From assembly GCA_944384425.1 (NCBI GenBank), contig CALWTI010000003.1, positions 1-48,776 on the forward strand: a DNA stretch of 48,776 nt. The letters are read 5' to 3'. Source of the DNA: an uncultured Clostridia bacterium (GTDB lineage: Bacteria > Bacillota > Clostridia > Christensenellales > UBA1242). The translations under genes and the position numbers were made by a program. This document shows, piece by piece, positions 23,803 through 48,776 of the stretch. How positions within the stretch are numbered: the stretch's first letter is position 1; each line of letters begins with the position of its first letter. The notes below the pieces were generated by a model that did not search any database, was not told the DNA's origin, and saw only the letters and a list, made by a program, of their open reading frames with translations.

Positions 23803-23831
23803 TTGAATTTTACATATATATATGATATAAT
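23803..23831 (+). promoter_or_regulatory. Near-consensus sigma-A promoter with extended -10
   Basis: TTGAAT, 17-nt spacer, TGaTATAAT; predicted start near 23837. Confidence 0.7.
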
Positions 23832-23835
23832 AAAA

Positions 23836-24413
23836 ATGAAGGTGCAGTATTCTAGTCAGTCTTAGCTGTTTGGAAGTTGATACAAAAAGCAACGAAGGGC
23901 ACAACTGTGAAGTTTCTGGTGCGTGCTTCGATTGCCCAAATTGGGGTGCGTGCTGGAAGTTAAGATTATTGGGCGAGTTATAACGGCATATAACCCCCGA
24001 CCCAATTTTCGCGGAGACCCAAAAGGGTGGCATGATAATTTTGTGGCACTGTTTGGGAAGAACCTGCATTGCGGTGAAACAAAAATAGCTGTGTGCAGCG
24101 TAGCCTGCTTTGAGTGGACTTGTAGGGATAGTGCGTTAAGGTAATTTAAAGACCGGCCAATCGATAAATCTACTTTGTATTTGAAATCAAGTTTGCAAAA
24201 AAAGCTAAGAACAGCTTAGACTGTCAAGGAAAACTTCTAGACTGTGACTTATGTCAAACATTTTGGGGATTATAGTGTGGTCTTAGTGGCGATTCGGTGT
24301 AAGCCTTTGCTTAAAAGGAAACTGCCCATACGGTGACGGTGGGTGCGAAGTTTGGGGAAATCCTACCGAACCTATGCCACAAGGTTTACTCAAAGTGTTA
24401 CCTTCATTTTTTT
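23836..24413 (+). ncRNA. Large (~580 nt) structured non-coding RNA, candidate OLE-like RNA
   Basis: No credible ORF. Hand count gives ~47% G+C in 23881-24000 against AT-rich flanks. Has its own promoter and a terminal T-run. Long-range pairings are 23836-43 with 24400-07 and 23857-68 with 24212-23 (11/12). Context xseB-RNA-membrane protein-argR-recN matches the ole/oapA locus. Confidence 0.6.
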
Positions 24414-24433
24414 ATTTATAAAAAGGAATTAAA

Positions 24434-25162
24434 GTGAAAAAGAAACCTAACCCGAAAAGCAAAACTGTAAAAAAACAAAATCAAAACAATAAACAACTTG
24501 TATGGTCGCTGAAAGTGCTTGTGCTATCGTTTGCTCTTTCTATGTGCTTTGGCGTGCTGAGCGAATTTTTTCTAAGTGGCACAGGAATAGTCATTGCGGT
24601 ACTTGTCATTGTCGTGTTTATGTCAATTTCTATTTTGACAGATATGATTGGTGTTGCTGTGACCGCTGCCGACATTCAGCCGTTTAGAGCTATGGCGTCA
24701 AAAAAGATTAGGGGAGCGAAAGAAGCGATAAAACTAATAAAAAACGCTGATAAGTTTACAAGCATTATTGCCGACGTCGTCGGTGACGTGTGCGGAATTT
24801 TGTCAGGTGCTGCCGGTGCAAGTATTATAGTTAAAATCGCCATTGATTCAGAATCTGCTCTTGGTATAATTATTGCGTCGCTGGTCAGTGCGGTAATTGC
24901 TAGTATGACAATATTTGGAAAATCACTAGGCAAGAAGTACGCAATGAAAAATTGCAATAAGATAATGCTTGTTGTTGGTAGAGTGATGAGCTGGTTTACT
25001 CCTCAGGGCAAAAAATCAAAGAAGTCTGAAACAAAAGAAGAACAAACAAAAGTAGAAGAGAAACAACTTTCGCTCGATGAAGAAGAAAGCCAAATCTCAC
25101 AAGATTCAAAAGGTGAGGATGAACAATCTACCAATAATCAAAATACAGACAGTGATAAATGA
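24434..25162 (+). CDS. 4-TM membrane protein with K/E/Q-rich tail, candidate OapA-like partner of the upstream RNA
   Basis: GTG start with aaagga SD; TM segments; conserved-looking IIADVVGDVCGILSGAAG; directly downstream of the RNA. Confidence 0.5.
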   Translation: MKKKPNPKSKTVKKQNQNNKQLVWSLKVLVLSFALSMCFGVLSEFFLSGTGIVIAVLVIVVFMSISILTDMIGVAVTAADIQPFRAMASKKIRGAKEAIKLIKNADKFTSIIADVVGDVCGILSGAAGASIIVKIAIDSESALGIIIASLVSAVIASMTIFGKSLGKKYAMKNCNKIMLVVGRVMSWFTPQGKKSKKSETKEEQTKVEEKQLSLDEEESQISQDSKGEDEQSTNNQNTDSDK

Positions 25163-25425: not shown

Positions 25426-25481
25426 TAGACGGCTGAATGCCTTTATTTATAAGAGTTTCAGCGTTTAAAGGAGATACAAAA

Positions 25482-25934
25482 GTGGCAAGGTCATCACGAC
25501 AATCTAAGATTTTGGAATTGATATCGACAAAGGAGATTTCATCTCAAGACGAGCTGGTTGCTTGTTTAAAAGCAGCAAATTTTGATATCACACAGGCGAC
25601 TATTTCAAGAGATATAAAAGAACTTGGTCTAATCAAAATTCAAACTCCTGACGGTAAATACAAATATTCTTTAATGGAATCAACTGACCAAAGCGTTTCT
25701 AACAAAAACATTTCAATTTTCAGAGAATCTGTTATTTCGATAAAACCTGCGGGCAACTTGTGTGTTATAAAGACAGTCAAAGGTCTTGCTAGCGGAATTT
25801 GTGCAATCATAGACAAACTTAATGTCGAAGATGTTATGGGTTCTGTTTATGGAGACGATACAGTTATGGTAATAATGCCAACTTCACTTTCTGCACAAAA
25901 AGCTTCGGCAACACTTGAACAATTTATAAGATAA
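25482..25934 (+). CDS. argR: Arginine repressor
   Basis: GTG 25482 after aaaggaga SD; RQSKILELI wHTH; C-terminal GDDTVMVI motif. Confidence 0.9.
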   Translation: MARSSRQSKILELISTKEISSQDELVACLKAANFDITQATISRDIKELGLIKIQTPDGKYKYSLMESTDQSVSNKNISIFRESVISIKPAGNLCVIKTVKGLASGICAIIDKLNVEDVMGSVYGDDTVMVIMPTSLSAQKASATLEQFIR

Positions 25935-25938
25935 GATT

Positions 25939-27621
25939 ATGTTACAAAAGTTATTGATAAAAAATTTTGCTATAATTGAAAACACAAGCCTTGAATTTTG
26001 CCAAGGCTTCAATGTTTTGATTGGTGAAACAGGTGCTGGAAAAAGTATTGTTTTGGATGCACTTAAATTTGTTCTTGGTGCTAAGGCGCAAAGAGAAGAT
26101 ATTAGAAATGGCGAAAATGAAATTTTTGTTAAAGCCACCTTTGTTGATGTTGGACACTCAACAGTAAATAAACTCAAAGAGCTTGACATTGAATGTGATG
26201 ATGTTTTGCTCATTAGTCGTACATATAATGTAGATGGCAAATCATCGGTTAAAGTCAACGGAGAAGTTGTTAGTGTTTCAATGCTAAGAGAAATTGGCGA
26301 AACTCTTTATGATATGTTTGGTCAACATGATAGTATCGAACTTTTAAACATTAAAAATCATTTAAAGCTTTTGGATAGTTTTGATAATGAAATGCTTGTT
26401 AAAGACAAGGAAAACATAAAATCGTTACTTTCAAACCTAAAATCTTTGCAAAGCCAAATCAACGAAATTGGTGGAGCTGGTGAGGATAGAGAGCGAACTT
26501 TGGATTTGCTTAAATACCAAATAGATGAGATTAAAAACGCCAATTTAAGCGTTGGTGAAGACGAACAACTTGACAATCAAATATCAAAGCTTTCAAATGC
26601 AGAGAAAATATCTTCCGCATTAAACATTAGCCTTAATAGTTTAAATTCAGCCGAGATATCAAACGCACTTTCATCTATGTCATCAATTTTGTCATATAGT
26701 CCCGAAATCTCTTCTGCTTATGATAGGCTCAAAAGCGTTGAAATAGAACTTGAGGACATAGAACAATCTATGCAAGAGGTATTAAGCTCGCTTGAATTTT
26801 CTGAGCAAGATTTAGACAATTTGGTTTTAAGACAAGAGCAGATAAAATCACTAAAAAGAAAATACGGGTCAACCATTGATGAGATTTTGACATATATCAA
26901 AAATGCCGAAACAAAATATGACAATATTTTGAACGCTGAAAGTACCTTGGCAAAACTCGATGCCGAAAAACAAAAGATAAATAGTGCAATTTATGATGCG
27001 AGTTTGTCACTGCATGAAAAGCGAGTTAAAATTGCAAATGCCCTTGAAAAGCAAGTTTTCCAACAACTTGCTGACTTGAAAATGGAAAACACGACATTCA
27101 AAGTTGGCTTCAAGCCAATATCTGAAAGCGCGGATAATGTCTATACCGTCGACGGACTTGATAAAGTTGAGTTTTTGTTCTCTGCAAACAAAGGTGAGGC
27201 TGAGAAGAGTTTGTCAAAGACCATATCTGGTGGTGAAATGAGCAGGTTTATGCTTGCGATTAAGACAGTGCTTGGCACAAAAGACGATGTCAAAACACTT
27301 GTCTTTGACGAAATTGATAGTGGTGTCAGTGGTGAGGTTGGGTATAAAGTTGGTGAAAAATTGTATTCACTTTCAACATCATCGCAAGTTATTTGTATAA
27401 CCCATTTGCCACAAGTCACCGCTCTTGCTGATAGACATATTTACATACATAAAGAAGTTGAAAATGGCAAAACAAAAAGCTGTGCAAAAGTGCTGGAAAG
27501 AGATGATTTGATTAAATATCTATCAACACTTTTGGGTGGTTATGATAGTGATACATCAAAACTTCACGCAAAAGAACTACTTGATTTAGCAAGTGAAAAG
27601 AAAGCTGATTTGAATAAATAA
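25939..27621 (+). CDS. recN: DNA repair protein RecN
   Basis: GETGAGKSI Walker A; SGGEMSRFMLAI; LVFDEIDSG. Confidence 0.93.
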   Translation: MLQKLLIKNFAIIENTSLEFCQGFNVLIGETGAGKSIVLDALKFVLGAKAQREDIRNGENEIFVKATFVDVGHSTVNKLKELDIECDDVLLISRTYNVDGKSSVKVNGEVVSVSMLREIGETLYDMFGQHDSIELLNIKNHLKLLDSFDNEMLVKDKENIKSLLSNLKSLQSQINEIGGAGEDRERTLDLLKYQIDEIKNANLSVGEDEQLDNQISKLSNAEKISSALNISLNSLNSAEISNALSSMSSILSYSPEISSAYDRLKSVEIELEDIEQSMQEVLSSLEFSEQDLDNLVLRQEQIKSLKRKYGSTIDEILTYIKNAETKYDNILNAESTLAKLDAEKQKINSAIYDASLSLHEKRVKIANALEKQVFQQLADLKMENTTFKVGFKPISESADNVYTVDGLDKVEFLFSANKGEAEKSLSKTISGGEMSRFMLAIKTVLGTKDDVKTLVFDEIDSGVSGEVGYKVGEKLYSLSTSSQVICITHLPQVTALADRHIYIHKEVENGKTKSCAKVLERDDLIKYLSTLLGGYDSDTSKLHAKELLDLASEKKADLNK

Positions 27622-27669
27622 CAAAAAAGCATATAAACTACCTTATAGATTTTTAAAGGTGGTTTTTTT

Positions 27670-28884
27670 ATGGTTAAAAAGATTGTACTTAAATTATTTG
27701 GTGTGTTGTTGGCTGTTTGTTTTGTCATAACTATAAAAAATGTTGATTTTGAAAGTATAGTAGCACTATGTGACGATACGCCCATAACGCTAGAAACTTT
27801 GGACAAGTTAAATAGCGAGCATTTGCTTGGAAATTTTGTGGATACAAAGCTGACGGAAGATATTTGGACAACGGGTGGAGTAAAAGAAAAGTCAACTTCT
27901 TTGGTGGTTAAACTATTTGGTTTTATCCCTATAAAAAAGACCACCGTTGTGGTGTGTGATGATGAGTCTGTGTATCTTGGAGGAGTGCCACTTGGTTTTA
28001 GTGTTTCAACAAAGGGAGTTATTGTTGTTGGTTCAAATAGCGTTTTGACCGATGAGGGTAAGAAGACCAATACAGAACTTGAAAATGGTGATATAGTCAC
28101 GAAAGTCAACGGCATTGATATCTTTAATGTTGAAGACATAAAAGAACAACTCGATAAAAGTAATGGCAATGATGTTGAGGTGACATATTTAAGAAATAAC
28201 AAAGAACACAAGTGCAGTTTAACGCCAATTTTAGATTCTGAAAGTGGTGAATATAAACTCGGCATTTGGATAAGAAATGACGCTCAAGGAATAGGCACAC
28301 TTACATTTGTTACTGAAGATAATGACTTTGGTGCGCTTGGCCATGCAATAACTGACTTTGAAACAGGTGCGACAGTGCCTGTTAGTGATGGGAATATCTA
28401 TCCTTGCACTATGCTTGGAATAACAAAGGGGAGTAAAGGCAAGGCAGGCGAACTTAGATGCTTGTTCGTCGAAGGTTCAATGTCAAATGGAACAGTAGAG
28501 AAAAATACCACTTGTGGAGTATTTGGTGACATCAACGAAGATACCACTCTTGTGGACAAAAATTTAAGTTGTCCAATTGCTTCAAGGCTTGTGGTCAAAG
28601 TTGGTAAAGCGAAATTGATTAGTGCAGTGAGTGGCATAAGGGAAGAGTATGATATTGAAATTATAAAAACATACAATCAACATTCTACAAATGACAAAAG
28701 TTTTATTTTTAGAGTTAAAGATGAAAGACTGCTTAATTTGACAGGCGGAATTGTTCAAGGAATGAGTGGTTCACCCATTGTTCAAGACGGTAAACTCATA
28801 GGCGCAGTAACACACGTGTTTTTGTATGACCCAACAAAGGGTTATGGCGTTTATGCCGATTTTATGCTTGATGAAGTTTCTTGA
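27670..28884 (+). CDS. spoIVB: SpoIVB peptidase (S55) with PDZ
   Basis: GIGTLTF, GALGH and QGMSGSPI motifs; position after recN. Confidence 0.88.
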   Translation: MVKKIVLKLFGVLLAVCFVITIKNVDFESIVALCDDTPITLETLDKLNSEHLLGNFVDTKLTEDIWTTGGVKEKSTSLVVKLFGFIPIKKTTVVVCDDESVYLGGVPLGFSVSTKGVIVVGSNSVLTDEGKKTNTELENGDIVTKVNGIDIFNVEDIKEQLDKSNGNDVEVTYLRNNKEHKCSLTPILDSESGEYKLGIWIRNDAQGIGTLTFVTEDNDFGALGHAITDFETGATVPVSDGNIYPCTMLGITKGSKGKAGELRCLFVEGSMSNGTVEKNTTCGVFGDINEDTTLVDKNLSCPIASRLVVKVGKAKLISAVSGIREEYDIEIIKTYNQHSTNDKSFIFRVKDERLLNLTGGIVQGMSGSPIVQDGKLIGAVTHVFLYDPTKGYGVYADFMLDEVS

Positions 28885-40553: not shown

Positions 40554-40629
40554 TGGAGCTGATAGCCGGAATCGAACCGGCGACCTATTGATTACGAATC
40601 AATTGCTCTACCGACTGAGCCATATCAGC
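40554..40629 (-). tRNA. tRNA-Thr (anticodon CGT), CCA encoded
   Basis: Reverse complement GCTGATATGGCTCAGTCGGTAGAGCAATTGATTCGTAATCAATAGGTCGCCGGTTCGATTCCGGCTATCAGCTCCA folds as a full cloverleaf; anticodon loop TTCGTAA. Confidence 0.93.
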
Positions 40630-40687: not shown

Positions 40688-41290
40688 TTATATTTTTCTA
40701 ATAATAGCAACTACTTTTCCGACAACGCTTATGTTTTTGCCTTCGATTGGTTGATATAAAGGGTTTGCAGGATGCAACGATATCTTGTCTTCGTTTTTAT
40801 AAAAATATTTAACAGTTGCTTTATCTTCAACCATAGCGACGGCAATTTCTCCATTTTCAACGGTGTTTTGAGAATGAACTATTGCCAAATCTCCGTCATT
40901 GATTCCTGCATCAATCATACTGTCGCCTCTTACTTTTAGTGCAAAAAGAAGACTATCATCATAATTTCCGATAAGGGAAGAGGAGATTACGAGTCGTTCT
41001 TCAATATTTTGCTCTGCAAGAATTGGTTGCCCAGCCGCAACTCGCCCGACAACAGGGAAATTCACAGTTGGTATTTCTTGTTTAACTAAATCAATACTTC
41101 TGCTTTTGAATCCAGATTTTTTAATGTAACCAGCGAGTTCAAGTCTATCAAGATATTTTTTTACGGAGTTTATTGATTTTAGATTGACATTTGCCGAAAT
41201 TTCACGATAGGTTGGTGGATATCCAGAATTTTTGGTATATTCTTCAATAAAAGATAATATATCTTGCATTTTTTGTTCTGACTTTTTCAT
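40688..41290 (-). CDS. lexA: LexA repressor
   Basis: N-terminal wHTH (GYPPTYREI); GDSM catalytic Ser motif; C-terminal VVGKVVAIIRK. Confidence 0.93.
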   Translation of the reverse strand: MKKSEQKMQDILSFIEEYTKNSGYPPTYREISANVNLKSINSVKKYLDRLELAGYIKKSGFKSRSIDLVKQEIPTVNFPVVGRVAAGQPILAEQNIEERLVISSSLIGNYDDSLLFALKVRGDSMIDAGINDGDLAIVHSQNTVENGEIAVAMVEDKATVKYFYKNEDKISLHPANPLYQPIEGKNISVVGKVVAIIRKI

Positions 41291-41358: not shown

Positions 41359-42384
41359 CTACCTAAGTTTTACTTTATCGGCCACACTGCGTCTTATATC
41401 TTCGCTCATTGCTGCATAGTGCTTTTTGGTTGTATTTACATCTTTATGTCCCAAAACTTCTGCAACAACATAAATGTCGCCGGTTTCACGATACAAATTT
41501 GTGCCGTAGGTGCTTCTTAATTTGTGAGGTGAAATCTTTTTAAGTGGCGAGGCGATTTTGCTATATTTTTTAACTAAGTTTTCAACTGCACGAGTTGTTA
41601 TTCGCTTTTTTTGAAGTGACACAAAAAGGGCATTTTCTTTGCTGTTTTCAAGCCATATTGCTCTGTCATCAAGCCACTTTAAAAGCGCATCTTTGACTTC
41701 ATCAGAAAAGTACAAAATCACTTGGTTTCCACCTTTGCGTGTAACTTTAAATGAGTTGTTGTCAAAATCAACGTCATTTATATTTATGCCCACGCATTCG
41801 CTGACACGAATTCCAGTTCCAAGAAACAGGCTCAAAATAGCAACATCTCTTGACCTTGTGTGCTTGTTATAAGCTTGTTGGCGTTTTGTCATATGGTCGG
41901 GACAATCTGCTTCATTGATGAGCTTTGCCACTTCATCGACTTCAAGGCGTATGATGTCTTTGCTATGTATTTTGGGTGTGTCAACTTTTGCTGCAACGTC
42001 GGTTTTTATATTGTCATTTTTAAAGTTGTATTTAAAAAAGCTCTTAATAGTCGAGATTTTTCTTGCTTTTCCTTTTTCGCCATTATGATAAGTTTTTCCG
42101 TTATATTCATAATAGGTAAGATAGCTCAAATACATTTCAATATCACGAATTTTCAAGCTTTCTAGGTCAGCAAATGTAATATCTTTTACATTTTTTTTAA
42201 ACACGTTGTTTGCTAAGTAATTGAAAAAAATTTCCAAATCTTTGCTGTAATTTAATCTTGTTAATGGTGAAGTGTAATTTTCAATTGACAAGAAAAAATT
42301 CAAGCAATAGTCGGGGAGTTTTTCAAGACTTTTACTTATTCCATTTTGACATTTAATTTCACGTTCTTTAACAAAATCACTCAT
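41359..42384 (-). CDS. Xer-family tyrosine recombinase (XerC/D/S-like)
   Basis: SAM-like N-domain (LTRLNYSKDLEIFFNYL); catalytic TGIRVSE, VTRKGGN, HKLRST and LGHKDVNTTKKHY. Confidence 0.88.
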   Translation of the reverse strand: MSDFVKEREIKCQNGISKSLEKLPDYCLNFFLSIENYTSPLTRLNYSKDLEIFFNYLANNVFKKNVKDITFADLESLKIRDIEMYLSYLTYYEYNGKTYHNGEKGKARKISTIKSFFKYNFKNDNIKTDVAAKVDTPKIHSKDIIRLEVDEVAKLINEADCPDHMTKRQQAYNKHTRSRDVAILSLFLGTGIRVSECVGININDVDFDNNSFKVTRKGGNQVILYFSDEVKDALLKWLDDRAIWLENSKENALFVSLQKKRITTRAVENLVKKYSKIASPLKKISPHKLRSTYGTNLYRETGDIYVVAEVLGHKDVNTTKKHYAAMSEDIRRSVADKVKLR

Positions 42385-42462: not shown

Positions 42463-43422
42463 ATGAAAAATCAAATTTTTTCTTTTGATAAAGCGTATAT
42501 TGAAACTTTTGCAAGAGGCGTAAGTTATTCATATGTTGAAAATGCTTATAGCATTTTTCTTGATATTTTAGATGAATCAATGCAAGCTATCACGAAATTT
42601 CGACCTGTTGTAACAGACTATAATTGCCAAATAGTAAATGAATGTTTAAACGATGCACAGCTTCAAAATTCAACACTTGATATTTTTATGAATATAAAAT
42701 CTCCACAACTTGAGCTTGGCTTAGTTAAACTAAACAAAAACTATATAAAAAAATGGTTTAACAAGTTAAAATTGGCATGGTCAAGCAATAAAAAACCAAA
42801 GAAAAAAAGATGGTGGCAAAGAAAAAATAAAACAAAAACCGACAAAAATGACGAAATTAAAATAGGCGAGAAATATGATTTTCAGGCATTTAAGAAACAA
42901 TTGATGCTTGAACTAGCAAAAAGATTTACACCAAAAACAACAATATATGTGTCAAGTTATGGTTTGCTTGTTCTTTGTAGCGAAGATTTGGGCATGGACA
43001 TAAATCTTTTTATATGTTTTTCAAATGGTGAAAAATACACTTTATTCAATGAGCTGACAATGAACTTGACTTACATTGAATTTAAAGATAGAGAAAAAAA
43101 TATTCACACAAAAAGATTAAGTACAAATGATAATTTTGTAAAAGCGCTTAGAATTTTCAATGGTTTGTATAGAAATATTTATTCAAAGCCATTAAATCAA
43201 ATTTTGCTAGAAAGTGTTTTGTATAATTGCCCAGATGAATTATTTGAAAACAATGCTTATGATATGTTTATAAAACTTATAAATTTTATAAATGTAAGTG
43301 CTATGCAAACTTTTAAATCAATAACAGATGACGAAACTTCAATAATAAAAAACAATTTAATACCACAAAGCGAAATTTATGATTTTGTGAACTTTTTAAA
43401 GAATTTGGCAAAATTACTATAA
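42463..43422 (+). CDS. Orphan 319-aa protein, possibly a degenerate nucleotidyltransferase fold with a polybasic insertion
   Basis: No SD. TTGACT-18-TATTAT ends 6 nt before the ATG, so the mRNA is possibly leaderless. Carries a KKPKKKRWWQRKNKTK insert. The C-terminal LLESVLYNCPDELF resembles NTase-family helices. Confidence 0.6.
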   Translation: MKNQIFSFDKAYIETFARGVSYSYVENAYSIFLDILDESMQAITKFRPVVTDYNCQIVNECLNDAQLQNSTLDIFMNIKSPQLELGLVKLNKNYIKKWFNKLKLAWSSNKKPKKKRWWQRKNKTKTDKNDEIKIGEKYDFQAFKKQLMLELAKRFTPKTTIYVSSYGLLVLCSEDLGMDINLFICFSNGEKYTLFNELTMNLTYIEFKDREKNIHTKRLSTNDNFVKALRIFNGLYRNIYSKPLNQILLESVLYNCPDELFENNAYDMFIKLINFINVSAMQTFKSITDDETSIIKNNLIPQSEIYDFVNFLKNLAKLL

Positions 43423-43445
43423 TTTTCGCCTATTCTATGCCTTAT

Positions 43446-43473
43446 TATTCGCAAAAGCTGTCTTTTGTGAATA
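43446..43473. promoter_or_regulatory. dif-like 11-6-11 recombination site, left prophage junction
   Basis: TATTCGCAAAA-GCTGTC-TTTTGTGAATA; arms are 10/11 inverted repeats; identity with the copy at 48684 begins within the spacer. Confidence 0.6.
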
Positions 43474-43538
43474 TTTAAACATCTTTGACTGTATCAATGT
43501 AGTTTTCGAGCACTATTCTCATCAAATCGCTTGTTTTT
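43462..43538. repeat. Direct repeat, left copy (identical to 48700-48776)
   Basis: 77/77 identity at an offset of exactly 5,238 bp; the right copy is cut by the window end. Confidence 0.95.
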
Positions 43539-43618
43539 CTACGTTTTTCGCTTGCTAGTTGCTTGAAATTGTCTATTGTTTCTTGTTTTAGTCTAATACC
43601 ACAAAATACTTTTTGCAT
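43475..43618 (-). CDS. Ribbon-helix-helix (CopG/Arc-like) DNA-binding protein, 47 aa
   Basis: MQKVFCGIRLKQETIDNFKQLASEKRRKTSDLMRIVLENYIDTVKDV. Strand-helix-helix pattern; aaggagg SD 7 nt upstream; below the ORF-track cutoff. Confidence 0.75.
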   Translation of the reverse strand: MQKVFCGIRLKQETIDNFKQLASEKRRKTSDLMRIVLENYIDTVKDV

Positions 43619-43657
43619 TTATATACCTCCTTTTAATTAAATTTATTTGTTTAATTT

Positions 43658-43692
43658 TGTTAAACATTTTAACTATATATCATTGTTTAACA
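43658..43692. promoter_or_regulatory. Two TGTTWAACA palindromes in the RHH promoter region
   Basis: tgttaaaca at 43658-66 (inside GTTAAAcatTTTAAC) and tgtttaaca at 43684-92; a third copy lies at 48673-81. Confidence 0.5.
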
Positions 43693-43906
43693 TTTTGCCA
43701 ACAGTTTTTTCAAAAAATTTTGTTTGTTGCTCCCCTGCCCTACCCTAATAGTATAGCGCTTGCGCGTGGGGTATGGGGTTATTGACCCCATTAAAGCCCC
43801 AAATAACGCATTTTTAGAGCCTAGAACGAACGAAACGAACGCGGACGAGTAGTTATATACCCTCAACACTCTTTCGTGTGTTTATGAGCCTAAAAAAAGG
43901 CAAAGC

Positions 43907-44956
43907 TTAGTTTTTTCGCTTCGCCTTTTTAATTCTCTCACGTATGATATCCTCTTTTTGCATTAAATATTGCTTTTCTGTCAAGCTTGTGTTTTTTAAC
44001 ACCTTTTCTCTGTTCCATTTTGCCATAAATTTGCGCTGTTCTTTTATCTCTTCGATTTTCTCTGGGTTTTCTAGTTCGTATAACAAATCAAAATATCTTG
44101 GTGGCTTCGCTGATCTTACATTGCCCTTTCCGTCAGATAAGAAAATTTCGTCACTTTCATATATCAAGTCTTTGTTTTTTTCAAAGTAATTTTTGCCAAT
44201 GCCCGGCTTTCTTGACATTCTGACGAATTCAGGCACAAGCCCTTGCTTTTTATACCACTCTGCATCAATTCCCTGTTGTTTCTTCATAACATATCTAGCA
44301 GTATATGCGCAAGTTTCCCAACTTAACTTGCCAATAGATATTATGCCATTGCCCCAAAGTTCTTCTATGGCTTTAGATGTAAATATCTGGTCTTCTTGAA
44401 AATTCTTAAACATTGGTTTTTTGTCTGGAATAGGCATGTTGAATATCAACGCGTGATAGTGTGGCCTTTTTGTTTTGTCGCCATACTCTCCACATGCATA
44501 AAATCTTATGCCTGGGTTTGTATCTGTCTTTTTCCATCCGTATGTATACTCCCAATGCCGTCGCAACCGTTTAAAAAAGTTTTGCAAGTCCTTGGGCTGT
44601 AAAGTTCCCTTTATTGACTTTTCCCCGGTTTCTTTGTCAACATGTTCGACAGTGTGCAGATGTGCATCATCATAAGTGAGAGTTACAAAGTAATTTTCTT
44701 TCCACTGTTTAGCTTCTAGCATACATCTGTTGGCCCACGTCTTGGCATAGTCCATCCGACATCCAAGGCACTTACCACAAGGAACTTTAACTACTCTTTT
44801 TTCGAGCCAATCGTCAGTGATTTTTTCTCCGTAATAGTATTCTGCAACTATTAGCTCTGATGCTATTTTGCTTTCCGTTGTTATTATTAGCTTTTTCTTG
44901 CCACTTGGAAGAGTTAGCCCGGTATCACGCATAAGTAATGGATGAAAGCATGTCAC
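43907..44956 (-). CDS. Microviridae replication initiation protein (VP4/A-like, HUH)
   Basis: CGKCLGCR, YFVTLTYD, RPHYHALIF (HUH) and YTARYVMKK motifs; GTG start after ggagg. Confidence 0.92.
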   Translation of the reverse strand: MTCFHPLLMRDTGLTLPSGKKKLIITTESKIASELIVAEYYYGEKITDDWLEKRVVKVPCGKCLGCRMDYAKTWANRCMLEAKQWKENYFVTLTYDDAHLHTVEHVDKETGEKSIKGTLQPKDLQNFFKRLRRHWEYTYGWKKTDTNPGIRFYACGEYGDKTKRPHYHALIFNMPIPDKKPMFKNFQEDQIFTSKAIEELWGNGIISIGKLSWETCAYTARYVMKKQQGIDAEWYKKQGLVPEFVRMSRKPGIGKNYFEKNKDLIYESDEIFLSDGKGNVRSAKPPRYFDLLYELENPEKIEEIKEQRKFMAKWNREKVLKNTSLTEKQYLMQKEDIIRERIKKAKRKN

Positions 44957-44985
44957 GTTTTCCTCCTTTTAAGATTAATCAAAAT

Positions 44986-45049
44986 GTCGACGTGATCGTC
45001 GACGTTGAGCTCAGCACAAATACTATTACTTGATTATATTTGTGCTGAG
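44986..45049. other. Two perfect hairpins in the VP2-VP4 intergenic region
   Basis: gtcgacg-tgat-cgtcgac (44986-45003); ctcagcacaaata-14 nt-tatttgtgctgag (45010-45049). Confidence 0.8.
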
Positions 45050-45063
45050 TGACACAAAATTGC

Positions 45064-45507
45064 TTATTTTAGCAATTTTAACAAACTGATTGCTGTGTTT
45101 ACAATGCTTGTTGGACTGTCTTGTTTTTTGCCGTTTGTGCTTGCAATACTTTTGACAAGTCCCGCGGCTGCATTAATGTTGTTAGCAAGTGATGCGCCAT
45201 GATTATTATTATTAGTGAATGCATTATTTCCACTTGCTGCCATTCCTGTTGGTGTGCTTGCGCCACCCTGTTGGAAGGCAAGCGCCGGGTTAAGCCCGGC
45301 CGCTTCCATGTCTTTAATTGCCCGTTGATATGATGTGTTGCTCATGTATTCTTCCCACTGTCTTTGTTTAAGCGCTTCTTGTGCGTTGAATTGGCGTGTT
45401 ATTTCTGCTTGTTCGGCATTGTACTGCCTTTCTTTTGCTGCTGTTCCAAAGCCTAGCCAATCCTTTATGTTTTCCCACGTACCTTGATTTTGATAGTTAA
45501 ACTCCAT
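45064..45507 (-). CDS. Microviridae DNA pilot/minor capsid protein (VP2-like, short)
   Basis: NTSYQRAIKDMEAAGLNPALAF motif typical of VP2; G/A/N-rich C-terminal half. Confidence 0.85.
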   Translation of the reverse strand: MEFNYQNQGTWENIKDWLGFGTAAKERQYNAEQAEITRQFNAQEALKQRQWEEYMSNTSYQRAIKDMEAAGLNPALAFQQGGASTPTGMAASGNNAFTNNNNHGASLANNINAAAGLVKSIASTNGKKQDSPTSIVNTAISLLKLLK

Positions 45508-45517
45508 AAATCACCTC

Positions 45518-47290
45518 TTAATTATGGTCAATTAGTCCTGGGATGCTGTACATTGGCATTGGCCTTGCTGCTTTTATTGAAAAGTAGAAGTCGCATGTAA
45601 ATTGGTCACTTACTGTACTTTGTACTGCCAATGTTTGGTCAATTGCTTCTGTTCCCTCGTCGTTAAATTCTTGGCTTAATGTAGGCAATGTTTCAAATTC
45701 TAGTCCGTAGTGCCAAATATTTCCATTTTTTTCCGCATTACTTCGTAGTTGACCTGTGATCAAGTTTGGGTTATATCTGTATTCTGCCCATGCCTCCTGG
45801 TAGCCGAACACTTCATTGTCTTTATTATTGTCTTCTTCTGTTTTTTGACTTCCTGCTTGAGTTATGTAAAGTTCTTTGTTTAATATAGGTTGTTCCCCAA
45901 TGTTTGCTAATGCTGGCCAATAATAGTCAAATCTTCTAGTCCTTGACCAAAGTTTGTTAATGCCTTGTTGGTAACTATTTACAACTCTTACACATGCTAG
46001 TCCAATTATGAACCCGTGCTCAGTGAAAGATTTTGTGAAGCTTCGATTACTCCCGGCAGTGTTTGAAAATGCTGCAGCATTTCCTTGTGGTGAATTTTCT
46101 GTACCTTCGCTTGTTTGTAGGACTTGCATCATGTTTATTGGACAACGTTTTCCGCCCAGGTACTCCGGCCTTTGTTGGCGCGCATCTGCTGACGTTACCC
46201 CGAAATTGCTTTTAATAATTTCGATATATCTAGTTCCTCCGCGCGCATCTTTTTCGAGTTGTCTTTGTACAGCAAAGGCAAGACGTATGTCATTTATGTT
46301 AATTGCTGTTGCATTTGTTAGGTCGGCTATCATACCGCTTAGATTTGGATCTGTTGTTAGTCCCATTATTGTTGGATTTGATGGCGCTGCGTTTACTGAT
46401 GTTATTTTATCTCCTGTGTTCTTTCTAGTTTCTTCGCTTGATGCATATAATCCTGTTATGCCGTTTTTGGCTGGCTCTGTTACTCCTTCTAGTATATTAT
46501 TTGTTGTTGCAGTTGCTGCTACTAAGTTCCATGTGTAGTCATTTACAGTTGATGCCCCTGGTGCTTCAAGTCCTATTGCTGTCCCATTTCCTATTACGGG
46601 AGCACTGTCTCCAAGTGGTATTGTTATTGGGCTACCTTTTTGTGGTTCAGGCAGTGCACTTGTAAAGTAGTCGTGTAATTTTGCCACCTTCAAACATTTT
46701 GTAGTTCCTGCTTGTACATATTTCGCTGTAGGGAATGCTATTATGTTGCCATCCACATTTTTTTGCACGTCTAGTGGTGCAATTATATTTTGGTTTCTGA
46801 ACCATTCATTGTAGATTAGTACATATCCTCTGAATGGTAGAGCGTTAACTCCTTTTTCTGGTCTTGTAATGTTTTGTAATCCTATGCACTTTTTTGTTGG
46901 AATTCCCATGTGGTCGCCGATGCTACCCGGTTCATATGTTGTTATTATTGTTGGTATCTGATATTCTGTCTCTTCTTCGTCCCATTCTCCCGTTTTATTT
47001 TCGCCCATAAATTCTGGCCAATGGTCCCAAACTAATCTGTTTGGTACAAAGAAATAATATAGGTCCAAGTATGCTGTATCCATAACCGGTTTTAATGGCG
47101 TATTCATACGAATAACATATCCGGTATCAATGTTGAATGTGTCCCCCGGTAATATTTCTTGTACGAGAATTGGGACTAATTCACCCTCATTAAAAGTTGT
47201 TTTGTGACCGTGACTTAGGTCGAATATGCTTCTTTTTATGTCCACATTTGGTAGTTTGCTAAAATGTAGTTCTGTGTTTCTATTCGCCAT
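45518..47290 (-). CDS. Microviridae major capsid protein (VP1/F)
   Basis: FSKLPNVDIKRSIFDLSHGHKTTFNEGELVPILVQEILPGDTF N-terminus; 590 aa; aggagg SD. Confidence 0.93.
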   Translation of the reverse strand: MANRNTELHFSKLPNVDIKRSIFDLSHGHKTTFNEGELVPILVQEILPGDTFNIDTGYVIRMNTPLKPVMDTAYLDLYYFFVPNRLVWDHWPEFMGENKTGEWDEEETEYQIPTIITTYEPGSIGDHMGIPTKKCIGLQNITRPEKGVNALPFRGYVLIYNEWFRNQNIIAPLDVQKNVDGNIIAFPTAKYVQAGTTKCLKVAKLHDYFTSALPEPQKGSPITIPLGDSAPVIGNGTAIGLEAPGASTVNDYTWNLVAATATTNNILEGVTEPAKNGITGLYASSEETRKNTGDKITSVNAAPSNPTIMGLTTDPNLSGMIADLTNATAININDIRLAFAVQRQLEKDARGGTRYIEIIKSNFGVTSADARQQRPEYLGGKRCPINMMQVLQTSEGTENSPQGNAAAFSNTAGSNRSFTKSFTEHGFIIGLACVRVVNSYQQGINKLWSRTRRFDYYWPALANIGEQPILNKELYITQAGSQKTEEDNNKDNEVFGYQEAWAEYRYNPNLITGQLRSNAEKNGNIWHYGLEFETLPTLSQEFNDEGTEAIDQTLAVQSTVSDQFTCDFYFSIKAARPMPMYSIPGLIDHN

Positions 47291-47717
47291 CTTTTACCTC
47301 CTGTTGTTTTGGTTGTTCGATTTTATAAGCTTTTAAAATATCTTGCTGAGTTATTTGCTCCCCGCTTATTATTTTTTCTTTTAGTTCTTCTGGCATAGCC
47401 TGGTATTTTTGCCCGGCATTTTGCGCCATTGCGTTTAGGTCATTAATGTTATTTGGTGTTATGGTGCTGTCACCGTAGTTAAGTGCTGGTTTTTTGTAGA
47501 GTACTCCCAAATCTCCATTTTTGAAGCGTTCAAGGATGTTGTATATCATTGTGTCTTCTTTGCCCTCTTGAATTTTGGCGTAAACGTTAACTTTGCCGGT
47601 TTCTTTGTAGTCAATTGACCCATCTTTGTTGGTTATGCGTTTAATTATTCTTCTAAATCCGTCTCCTGTTGCCCCTTTGCCTTGTTTTGGCGGATTTTGC
47701 ATTGTTAGAAATTTCAT
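47280..47717 (-). CDS. Microviridae internal scaffolding protein (VP3-like)
   Basis: Position upstream of and overlapping VP1; EDTMIYNILERFKNGD resembles the VP3 DINxIxxxFxKTG segment. Confidence 0.7.
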   Translation of the reverse strand: MKFLTMQNPPKQGKGATGDGFRRIIKRITNKDGSIDYKETGKVNVYAKIQEGKEDTMIYNILERFKNGDLGVLYKKPALNYGDSTITPNNINDLNAMAQNAGQKYQAMPEELKEKIISGEQITQQDILKAYKIEQPKQQEVKDGE

Positions 47718-47738
47718 GTTACTCTCCTTTTAAATTTC

Positions 47739-47858
47739 CTATAAATAAGCTCTTTCTATTGATTGTAGTATTCTGATTGCTTCAAGTGGTTTTATTTTGT
47801 TTTTAAATAGAATTTTTGTAATTTCTTCTATAATTTCAACTGCTTTTTTTTTATCCAT
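47739..47858 (-). CDS. Small phage ORF (39 aa), not in ORF track
   Basis: MDKKKAVEIIEEITKILFKNKIKPLEAIRILQSIERAYL; ATG directly follows the upstream stop; ggtgag SD. Confidence 0.5.
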   Translation of the reverse strand: MDKKKAVEIIEEITKILFKNKIKPLEAIRILQSIERAYL

Positions 47859-48116
47859 TTACTCACCTTCTTTTATAATAAAGTCATTTGCTTTAGCAAT
47901 ATATTTTGGTTGGGTTGCTGTAATCTCTCCTGTCTGGTCGTTGTACTCGCCCATTGTCCACAGCTCTTTGTCGTCTGGATAAGTGTTGACTTGGTTTGGC
48001 TGTTGTGCTTGTGCCATTCCGCTAAATGCTCTTACTGCTACCGCGTCATTTTGCATCACAAAAGGTGCTGTAAATCCTATTTTTGTATCTTTTATTGCAT
48101 ATATTTTACTTATCAT
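47859..48116 (-). CDS. Conserved-looking small microvirus protein (85 aa; VP5-like?)
   Basis: IYAIKDTKIGFTAPFVMQNDAVAVRAF N-terminus resembles small gokushovirus-type proteins; gaggag SD. Confidence 0.7.
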   Translation of the reverse strand: MISKIYAIKDTKIGFTAPFVMQNDAVAVRAFSGMAQAQQPNQVNTYPDDKELWTMGEYNDQTGEITATQPKYIAKANDFIIKEGE

Positions 48117-48226
48117 TTTTTTATCTCCTCTATTTTTGTTTGATTTTTTAAAATGCCCTTTGGGTCTTTTTTCTTTAATATTTTTGGCTTGTAAATTTCT
48201 TCAAGCCATTTTTGAATTTTATTCAT
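48113..48226 (-). CDS. Small basic phage ORF (37 aa), not in ORF track
   Basis: MNKIQKWLEEIYKPKILKKKDPKGILKNQTKIEEIKK; ATGA overlap with the next gene; weak SD. Confidence 0.4.
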   Translation of the reverse strand: MNKIQKWLEEIYKPKILKKKDPKGILKNQTKIEEIKK

Positions 48227-48326
48227 TTTTTAATCTCTAGTTATAGTCTTATGCCTCCCCTGTTAATATTAGGGTCAACATTGACTTTTTTTGTTTTGCG
48301 TGCTGTTCTTGAAAAAATTTCGCTAT

Positions 48327-48638
48327 CTATTCGTTTTCTTGTTTTACTGCGCATCTTTCAATCTCCTTTTTTAAGTTTTTTTGAACTGATTTTGTTATGT
48401 ACGTTCCTAGGTCGTCTTTTATTGCGTCTAGTACGAAATTAGTTATTCTTGTTGTACTTGCTGATGTTCCTAGCAAGTTCTTTGCTTGTTTAATGTAAGT
48501 AGGCAATGTCTTTGCTATGTTTGCTACTGTTTCAAGTGTGTTTTTGTTTTTTAGTTTTATCATAATAATTAAGTATACAAACATACTAAGTGCGTTAATA
48601 GCGACTGTCCCTATACTTACCCAATTTTCAATACTCAT
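48327..48638 (-). CDS. Phage single-TM membrane protein (103 aa)
   Basis: Strong aggagg SD; N-terminal TM IGTVAINALSMFVYLIIMI; first gene after the att site. Confidence 0.75.
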   Translation of the reverse strand: MSIENWVSIGTVAINALSMFVYLIIMIKLKNKNTLETVANIAKTLPTYIKQAKNLLGTSASTTRITNFVLDAIKDDLGTYITKSVQKNLKKEIERCAVKQENE

Positions 48639-48683
48639 ATTACCTCCTTTTTTGTTAAATATTGAATAACATTGTTAAACAAA

Positions 48684-48711
48684 TATTTTAAAAAGTTGCC
48701 TTTTGTGAATA
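48684..48711. promoter_or_regulatory. dif-like 11-6-11 site, second copy (attP-like or attR)
   Basis: TATTTTAAAAA-GTTGCC-TTTTGTGAATA. Right arm is identical to the 43446 site; left arm matches 8/11; spacer differs at 2 of 6 positions. Confidence 0.55.
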
Positions 48712-48776
48712 TTTAAACATCTTTGACTGTATCAATGTAGTTTTCGAGCACTATTCTCATCAAATCGCTTGTTTTT
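48700..48776. repeat. Direct repeat, right copy (identical to 43462-43538), truncated by the window end
   Basis: Covers the 3' 62 nt of an RHH-gene copy plus 15 nt downstream. Confidence 0.95.

Follow-up and report, generated by a model that had tools for sequence, protein, structure and literature searches.

How does a microvirus that encodes no integrase come to be joined to a clostridial chromosome? The question is raised by a 48,776-nt contig (CALWTI010000003.1, assembly GCA_944384425.1; hereafter the window, meaning this whole stretch) from an uncultured Clostridia bacterium of the order Christensenellales, in which host DNA runs directly into a gokushovirus-like genome near the contig end. 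A first-pass annotation had proposed a complete, integrase-less Microviridae prophage, possibly in tandem, next to a possibly single Xer-type recombinase. Our analyses indicate that the join between host and phage probably reflects real Xer-type recombination at dif, and add three things to the earlier annotation: the junction is an exact hybrid between the host dif and the phage attP, the same species has empty sites, and in the same chromosomal neighbourhood there are relatives whose integration is apparent on both sides.

A hybrid dif site at the host-phage junction

Positions 43462-48699 comprise one complete gokushovirus-like microvirus of 5,238 nt, a size within the Microviridae genome range (~4.4-6.3 kb), with all ten open reading frames (ORFs) intact and on the minus strand. 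The period is set by a direct repeat (43446-43538 and 48684-48776), 77 nt of which (43462-43538 and 48700-48776) are exact and reach the last base of the window. The direct repeat bears out the previously proposed unit of 5,238 bp, as do the base compositions (37.1% G+C for the phage, 34.1% for the host) the proposal that the unit is richer in G+C than its host; the start, which had been put at 43446, is however the first base of the hybrid dif site and not of the phage. No match to an integrase family was found for any of the ten phage ORFs with Pfam and PHROG profiles, in agreement with the integrase-less character ascribed to the unit.

The left junction, attL, is a hybrid dif site of 28 bp (43446-43473; TATTCGCAAAA-GCTGTC-TTTTGTGAATA) with two 11-nt inverted arms and a 6-nt spacer, of which the left arm and the spacer are those of the host and the right arm is that of the phage. 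The phage-to-phage junction, attP (48684-48711; TATTTTAAAAA-GTTGCC-TTTTGTGAATA), consists of a degenerate arm, a spacer, likewise of 6 bp, and a near-perfect arm, and agrees with the host dif at 8 of 11 positions in one arm and at 10 of 11 in the other. Empty sites are present on eight contigs of the same species, as judged by ~96% nucleotide identity where compared (L003/L096, L091, L092, L093, L094, L095, L097 and L098); here the sequence runs uninterrupted as TATTCGCAAAAGCTGTCTTTTGCGAATA (attB being given as ...TATTCGCAAAAGCTGTCTTTTGCGAATAgtttagc), and continues into gtttagcaaaatt, a YgjP-like gene, PadR and RNase Y. The right arm of the empty site reads TTTTGCGAATA-gtttag; the window instead has a T, compared with C, at 43467, and then phage sequence, and the similarity of close relatives to the window ends at 43476-43477 in all of them. 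Since the window combines the host spacer GCTGTC with the phage-type T at 43467, the crossover lies between 43461 and 43467, an interval of 7 nt at the spacer/arm border, which is where tyrosine recombinases cut.

The host dif and its Xer recombinase

The dif-like attL lies ~1 kb from an Xer-family gene, as the first-pass annotation had noted in placing the site beside a recombinase of this type. The gene (41359-42384, minus strand) encodes a tyrosine recombinase of 341 aa, which is the candidate integration and excision enzyme. Its best NCBIfam match is XerS (190 bits, compared with an equivalog cut-off of 267), followed by XerA, XerC and XerD; the closest chains in the Protein Data Bank are those of XerA (5hxy) and XerD (1a0p), and the motifs GIRVSE (191), RKGG (216), HKLR (287), LGH (311) and KHY (321) fit the catalytic R, K, H-x-x-R, H and Y residues.

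A scan with this protein returned 80 loci from metagenome-assembled genomes (MAGs) of uncultured Clostridia and 'Christensenella sp.', in 37 of which the Xer gene has, at a distance of ~1 kb, the palindrome TATTCGCAAAA-N6-TTTTGCGAATA or a variant in which both arms have changed together. The arm pairs co-vary with retention of palindromy (TATTCGCAAAA/TTTTGCGAATA, TATGCGTAAAA/TTTTACGCATA and TCTTCGCAAAA/TTTTGCGAAGA), as would be expected for one protein binding both arms. The dif consensus has a single match in the window (43446-43473), compared with 0.01 expected by chance, and in 22 of 26 related loci the palindrome marks a reversal in the sign of the GC skew; at one exception, L028, the skew to the right of the palindrome stays positive (+0.098), and an insertion is possible there. 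From 1 to 40.5 kb of the window nearly all host genes are on the plus strand and the GC skew is positive, with both orientation and skew flipping at ~40.5 kb. We assign the palindrome as the putative host dif at the replication terminus and the neighbouring gene as that of its likely Xer. The system apparently works like the single-recombinase type, yet lies outside XerS/difSL.

Evidence that the join is real

A different account of the contig is that the phage is solely episomal, in a lytic or carrier state, and that its join to host DNA is an assembly or library chimera. The contig does end in a 77-nt loop closure (discussed below), no right junction (attR) was found, an identical free circle is present in another sequencing run and, according to PMC9239249, MAG contigs bearing microviruses are error-prone. 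Host attB and phage attP, however, share at most six consecutive identical bases across the site, such that a de Bruijn join at k=31 or k=77 needs reads spanning the junction; i.e. there is no host-phage k-mer long enough for a graph join. The breakpoint, moreover, falls at corresponding positions in the two dif-like sites of 28 bp, within the 7-nt interval, and the same hybrid junction recurs with a different assembler in an independent k=31 Logan contig (L001, run ERR4096379). The latter corresponds to 43024-48663 of the window with one single-nucleotide polymorphism (SNP) and passes the junction unbranched, suggesting that the integrated form predominates at that junction in this run. Together with the many relatives that are integrated on both sides at like sites, these results led us to reject the chimera, which we regard as very improbable, in favour of recombination at dif.

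A second Logan contig (L002, run ERR4096378) is circular, with 5,238 nt plus 30 nt (the k-1 overlap) and no mismatches to the unit; the phage is thus an autonomous replicon and not a remnant. Decay or domestication to a form unable to make virions is a generic possibility for prophages in MAGs, but nothing specific points to it here, and the ten intact ORFs with ribosome-binding sites, the identical closed circle and the occurrence of a sister phage as circles leave it with hardly any credibility; it too was rejected.

Several observations weigh against the interpretation of the locus as a phage integrated into its host by Xer. The window contains the left junction and the phage-to-phage junction, but not attR, nor was attR found in public contigs that carry either of its expected neighbours, the YgjP-like gene and the 103-aa phage gene. 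The hunt for it proceeded from the YgjP-like gene of an empty-site contig (L003) via its 90% cluster to the contigs of five cluster members, all of which are empty sites, and a look-up of the 103-aa phage gene returned the window and the free circle only. The absent attR is the main gap in the evidence; of the complete prophage proposed in the first-pass annotation, the phage genome is indeed complete, whereas the right host junction is absent from the window and from the public contigs that could be reached. The contig continues through attP and not into the right host flank, and a large share of the sample's phage DNA may exist as free circles or tandem copies; the join in the window is, in addition, based on assembled contigs. 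With respect to the recombinase, its score is below the XerS cut-off, and that there is a single Xer was judged from the palindromic, co-varying dif arms. The phage spacer GTTGCC differs from the GCTGTC of this host at 2 of 6 positions and is the dif spacer of a neighbouring species (L005, L006 and L007; Xer 88% identical in amino acid sequence), so that the present host may not be the principal host. The spacer mismatch suggests either a wider host range or a single strand exchange finished by replication, as in some of the integrative mobile elements exploiting Xer (IMEX) of Vibrio (PMC5357621).

Integrated relatives and the sister phage

Homologues of the major capsid protein, VP1, at 50-55% identity were found on long contigs, including two, L083 (167 kb) and L084 (91 kb), each in more than one sample, with a microvirus in the same chromosomal neighbourhood as in the window. 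The order in both is RNase Y, PadR, the YgjP-like gene, TCTTCGTAAAA-CACAAA-TTTGTAGTATA and a phage ending with a gene of the ribbon-helix-helix (RHH) type, on the far side of which are a perfect palindrome (TCTTCGTAAAA-CACAAG-TTTTACGAAGA), a 323-aa gene, SerRS and Xer. Among GTDB species representatives, a scan with the single VP1 protein gave nothing, and a VP1 alignment was required, with which 76 loci were obtained. In L100, L102, L103, L105, L106, L107 and L161 among these, the prophage is flanked by a degenerate hybrid site and, at its other end, by a perfect palindrome; Xer, often together with LexA, is near the prophage in five of the seven, with L107 carrying both and none being detected in the fetched flanks of L100. 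The pattern in relatives with both sides available is host arm, spacer and degenerate arm, then the phage, then a perfect dif, and insertion occurs in either orientation relative to the Xer gene.

The junctions of the relatives also bear on the possibility that a phage function catalyses integration in place of the host Xer. HUH endonucleases can join DNA strands, and the phage has an intact one, the replication initiator VP4. The window and at least seven relatives are, however, joined at dif-like 11-6-11 sites with arms matching the palindrome of each host, junctions that the logic of a Rep nick site fails to explain, and the enterobacterial precedent needs XerC, XerD and a phage dif motif (PMC7062461). 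Integration driven by VP4 was consequently rejected as most unlikely, and catalysis by the host Xer is retained as the favoured interpretation.

A sister phage (L255-L258), 87% identical to the window phage at the nucleotide level, occurs as circles in several samples. Its attP, in phage orientation, is TATTCGCAAAA-GTTGCC-TTTTTATAAAT, and that of the window phage is TATTCACAAAA-GGCAAC-TTTTTAAAATA; the two spacers are mutually reverse-complementary and the order of the arms is the same. With palindromic arms, the direction of insertion can be determined by the spacer alone, and the sister phage is predicted to insert in the opposite orientation.

A loose half-site regular expression for dif arms, applied to 80 IMG/VR relatives, matched 32 loci, compared with ~21 expected, and was dropped. 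Four relatives have a 28-nt palindrome, CACAATTAC(C/G)T-TTCTTG-ATGTAATTGTG, between VP2 and VP4 (L105 at 10244, L107 at 10230, L108 at 10266 and L132 at 10746); this is no dif site, and might be an origin or a terminator. In another host (L086-L088), a microvirus with VP1 ~52% identical is located between a locus for a bacterial microcompartment and an iron-containing alcohol dehydrogenase (BMC/Fe-ADH) and a 267-aa gene of the Phage_integrase family, which comes directly after VP4. VP1 relatives at 42-47% identity are also present on long scaffolds of the cultured strains Oscillibacter sp. PC13 (L132, in which a tyrosine recombinase gene abuts VP4), Muriventricola aceti H5_61 (L156) and Phascolarctobacterium faecium DSM 14760 (L117), which are possible experimental systems.

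The contig end and the question of a tandem array

After attP the window ends with a second-pass start of the phage, comprising the 3' part of the RHH gene (48700-48776, 77 nt, minus strand), which is an exact copy of 43462-43538. A SPAdes contig of the sister phage (L255), from the BRZ sample series that is also the source of the closest host MAG (L003), is circularly closed by a terminal overlap of exactly 77 nt, 77 being the SPAdes k of that project. The last 77 nt of the window are a loop closure in the assembly graph, leading from the host edge through the phage cycle to the entry vertex. They show that reads of the attP junction exist, and a tandem copy and a co-existing free circle of the replicative form are indistinguishable in this respect.

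The tandem arrangement suggested in the first-pass annotation was based on this end repeat, and is not sustained by it: the 'second copy' is just 77 nt, equal to the assembler k, a free circle gives an identical graph, and the closed circle in ERR4096378 is without a host branch. A true array of at least two head-to-tail copies at dif, comparable with those of CTX-phi, would account for the attP junction after the first copy, and one relative, L108 (a 36-kb contig), does have a true head-to-tail array of two copies, repeating every 5,173 nt (L108 6300-16700). The ends of the L108 copies are partly diverged, and its array stops at a perfect palindromic dif, TTTGCGCAAAAGCCTTCTTTTGCGCAAA. Tandem integration is thus possible in the group and unproven here; for the window phage we consider it doubtful.

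The RHH gene and the control regions

The phage gene closest to attL (43475-43618, minus strand) encodes a putative DNA-binding protein of 47 aa of the RHH type (CopG/ORF56-like), and its stop codon is 1 nt from the attP arm. The window protein alone matches RHH_1 with an E-value of 0.021 (15.2 bits, compared with a threshold of 20.5) and phrog_3180 (Arc-like) with 4.5e-4; RHH_1 is matched by all seven homologues (best 1.7e-7), and the seven proteins, combined in one profile, match pRN1 ORF56 (2k9i; 2.2e-6) and CopG (2cpg; 1e-3). CopG of pMV158 and ORF56 of pRN1 are RHH copy-control repressors of rolling-circle replicons. Homologues are present after VP4 in six related phages, with no more than ~20 nt between their ends and the good attP arm in five phages and ~58 nt in L100. 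The profile thus supports the RHH assignment of the earlier annotation, but the role in a lysogeny module that was attached to it goes further than this: L105 and L107 are integrated without room for an RHH gene, which is therefore not required for integration in the group. A function as a repressor or copy-control protein is tentatively proposed, with slightly less than even confidence.

Upstream of the RHH gene is an intergenic, putative control region with G+C-rich hairpins (43619-43906, minus strand) and a DNA fold of -38.6 kcal/mol (z = -3.4). It contains a promoter-like TTGGCA-18-TATAGT (43701->43672) upstream of the RHH gene. The sole difference between L001 and the window, a C->T change at 43698, converts this -35 element to the consensus TTGACA, which may mean nothing. 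Palindromes of the type TTGTTAAACA are located at 43657-43693 and also next to attP; they are not enriched over the window as a whole (24 compared with 18 expected), and their clustering in two phage control regions is a weak lead. A further promoter-like sequence, TTCACA-16-AATATT (48709->48682), overlaps attP and is positioned for the long operon; integration would swap the -35 element of this promoter for host sequence, which is likewise offered as a lead.

The phage genome and its neighbourhood

The ten phage ORFs span 43475-48638 and comprise VP1-VP5, four small ORFs and the CopG-type RHH gene, each preceded by a GGAGG-like Shine-Dalgarno sequence. All are on the minus strand, as are the features given here for the phage. 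VP1 (590 aa; 45518-47290) matches Phage_F (PF02305) over its full length (7.1e-154) and phrog_514 (1.4e-205); its identity to GenBank microviruses does not exceed 52%, the closest being rodent and pig faecal 'bajarodmic', 'Sigmofec' and Microviridae sp. genomes, and reaches 91% with its closest metagenomic homologue, that of the sister phage. VP4 (349 aa; 43907-44956) is an HUH rolling-circle replication initiator (Rep; PF23343, 3.7e-19; phrog_942, 1.3e-114) with the motifs CGKCLGCR and FVTLTYD, the HUH motif HYHALIF and the Y motif YTARYVMKK. The intact hallmark genes, the VP4 motifs and the good Shine-Dalgarno sequences reported in the first-pass annotation are therefore substantiated, with positive searches for both the Phage_F and Rep profiles. 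The DNA pilot protein VP2 (147 aa; 45064-45507) matches phrog_27063 (2.5e-29) and 16 more PHROG families, mostly annotated as DNA pilot or minor tail proteins, the internal scaffolding protein VP3 (145 aa; 47280-47717) matches Chlamy_scaf (PF09675, 1.1e-15), and VP5, or ORF5 (85 aa; 47859-48116), matches PF20577 (2.8e-20) and phrog_1670 (6e-24).

The small ORFs include one of 39 aa (47739-47858), for which a gene of equal length is called in L001 and L002, a basic one of 37 aa (48113-48226), and one of 103 aa with a hydrophobic N-terminal segment (48327-48638), which is the first gene after attP and has a weak homologue in L083. None of these three has a family match in Pfam, PHROG or PADLOC. 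An Arg/Lys-rich ORF of 37 aa (48241-48354; phrog_10695, 1.6e-6), found by tblastn in 12 related prophages, is probably a DNA-binding or packaging peptide. No known RNA was detected within the phage with Rfam. Capsid, Rep, VP2, VP3, VP5 and genome size, as read from the sequence, place the phage in the Microviridae as gokushovirus-like, of the 'Family 3' type.

Between the Xer gene and dif is a conserved host gene for a 319-aa protein (42463-43422, plus strand; PADLOC 'Cyclase', 1.5e-5, partial), which weakly resembles CD-NTase/oligonucleotide cyclases in their C-terminal part; its orthologues have a weak PF26305 match. Homologues are in the same place in L083 (14123-15094), L089 and L106, and also in L091 (1138-2097); this gene of ~320 aa, which occupies the position in many of the genomes, could encode a defence-type nucleotidyltransferase at a phage integration hotspot. 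Adjoining the Xer gene are tRNA-Thr(CGT) (40554-40629, minus strand) and lexA (40688-41290, minus strand), the lexA-Xer pairing being recurrent among many relatives. An argR-recN-spoIVB cluster is located upstream (25437-28884, plus strand), and its SpoIVB homologue (27670-28884), together with the assignment to the Clostridia, is consistent with the low-GC, spore-former-type host that had been described. Further upstream is a full-length ornate large extremophilic (OLE) RNA (23823-24420, plus strand; 417 bits in Rfam), followed by a gene for a 242-aa membrane protein (24434-25162) with a weak CNNM-domain match. OLE RNA is typical of anaerobic Firmicutes, and finding it in a Christensenellales-like MAG from the gut may be noteworthy.

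Proposed mechanism

We propose that a temperate, gokushovirus-like microvirus with a 5,238-nt circle hijacks the chromosome-dimer-resolution system of its host in the manner of an IMEX. The catalyst would be the host Xer, which is XerS-like and encoded ~1 kb from the terminus dif, probably with a single species acting on both arms. The phage attP mimics dif, with its near-perfect arm directly after the RHH stop codon, a 6-bp spacer and a degenerate arm. Recombination of the double-stranded replicative form with dif, with crossover at the border of the spacer and the good arm, would generate the attL at 43446-43473. A functional dif would be kept on the side of the Xer gene, with a crippled hybrid attR opposite, predicted as TATTTTAAAAAGTTGCCTTTTGCGAATA-gtttagc (junction TATTTTAAAAAGTTGCCTTTTGCGAATAgtttagc). 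Given the 2 mismatches among the 6 spacer positions, the exchange would be limited to one pair of strands, and the RHH protein might quiet the phage in the carried state.

In this scheme, we infer Xer as catalyst, its action alone, and the single strand exchange. The IMEX traits apparent at the locus are the lack of an own recombinase, the dif-like attP, the hybrid attL and the empty sites, with both flanking sites being evident in the relatives only. Taking the window and its relatives jointly, we lean, by a modest degree, towards the view that Christensenellales and allied gut Clostridia use an undescribed single-recombinase Xer system, in which a XerS-like gene is linked to a perfectly palindromic dif of 28 bp, and that a broad radiation of temperate gokushovirus-like microviruses exploits this dif/Xer system with a cassette of 'RHH repressor + attP', an orientation set by the spacer, and a promoter of the main operon that is split on integration.

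Comparison with known systems

Microviruses are among the most abundant phages of the mammalian gut, and their persistence in Clostridiales hosts is nearly uncharted. Gut gokushoviruses have been predicted by CRISPR spacers to infect Clostridiales (PMC10159846). Our literature search found no account of microvirus integration at dif in Clostridia, nor of a palindromic dif with a linked Xer in Clostridia or of an RHH-attP cassette. The locus and its relatives provide sequence-level evidence for lysogeny in Clostridia via the host Xer, with att sites defined to the base and a candidate repressor. As a by-product, a dif/Xer system of a poorly studied order is exposed, by the same logic that revealed a Legionellales system (PMC9765430).

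The closest parallel is with the enterogokushovirus EC6098 and the Escherichia prophages (Kirchberger & Ochman 2020, PMC7062461), which likewise are integrase-less, have a 28-bp dif mimic, integrate beside the host dif such that one conserved and one degenerate site result, and occur as free circles. For EC6098, XerC, XerD and the phage dif motif are needed for integration, and circular and integrated forms co-exist; that study found no gokushovirus prophages outside enterobacteria and mentions no repressor (PMC7062461). Its host is, however, Gram-negative, with XerC/XerD and an asymmetric dif, whereas here there is a clostridial host with a perfectly palindromic dif and one linked XerS-like gene. 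The window phage also differs in that a CopG-like RHH gene abuts attP and in that its VP1 is at most 52% identical to those of GenBank microviruses.

The first-pass annotation had regarded integrated microviruses as known mainly from Bacteroidota and enterobacteria. The Alpavirinae proviruses of Bacteroidetes (Krupovic & Forterre 2011, PMC3091885) do resemble the present case in their predicted dif-like sites and use of host Xer, but concern another microvirus family and another host phylum, with a mechanism that is predicted only. Cases in Firmicutes have, however, already been reported, notably the isolates of Erysipelatoclostridium and Mammaliicoccus sciuri described as the first Gram-positive microvirus prophages, with those borne on MAGs being distrusted (Kirchberger et al. 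2022, PMC9239249). These are from other host orders, and the available part of that report records their existence without an att site, Xer linkage or regulator.

Among the IMEX of Vibrio and Neisseria (CTX-phi, VGJ-phi, TLC-phi and the gonococcal genomic island, GGI; PMC5357621), use is similarly made of the host Xer at dif, with a degenerate arm paired with a good one in attP; tandem arrays can form, and single-strand exchange occurs when spacers differ (PMC5357621). In contrast with the window phage, they are filamentous phages or genomic islands of Proteobacteria that employ XerCD, and CTX-phi enters as folded single-stranded DNA. The host system itself is comparable with XerS/difSL (Lactococcus and Streptococcus), XerH/difH (Helicobacter) and XerA/dif (archaea), in which a terminus site is linked to the recombinase gene and one protein presumably acts on both arms. 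The difSL site, however, is 31 bp with unequal arms (PMC5357621, PMC3025954), whereas the window site is 28 bp with symmetric 11-nt arms. The putative regulator is like CopG and ORF56 in being an RHH protein in the 45-55-aa range on a rolling-circle replicon, with a profile that matches both, but its gene follows that of Rep and adjoins attP. What the window presents is thus a known lysogeny strategy, that of IMEX-type microviruses, in a new host clade and with a different, apparently single-recombinase, Xer system, together with a candidate regulator.

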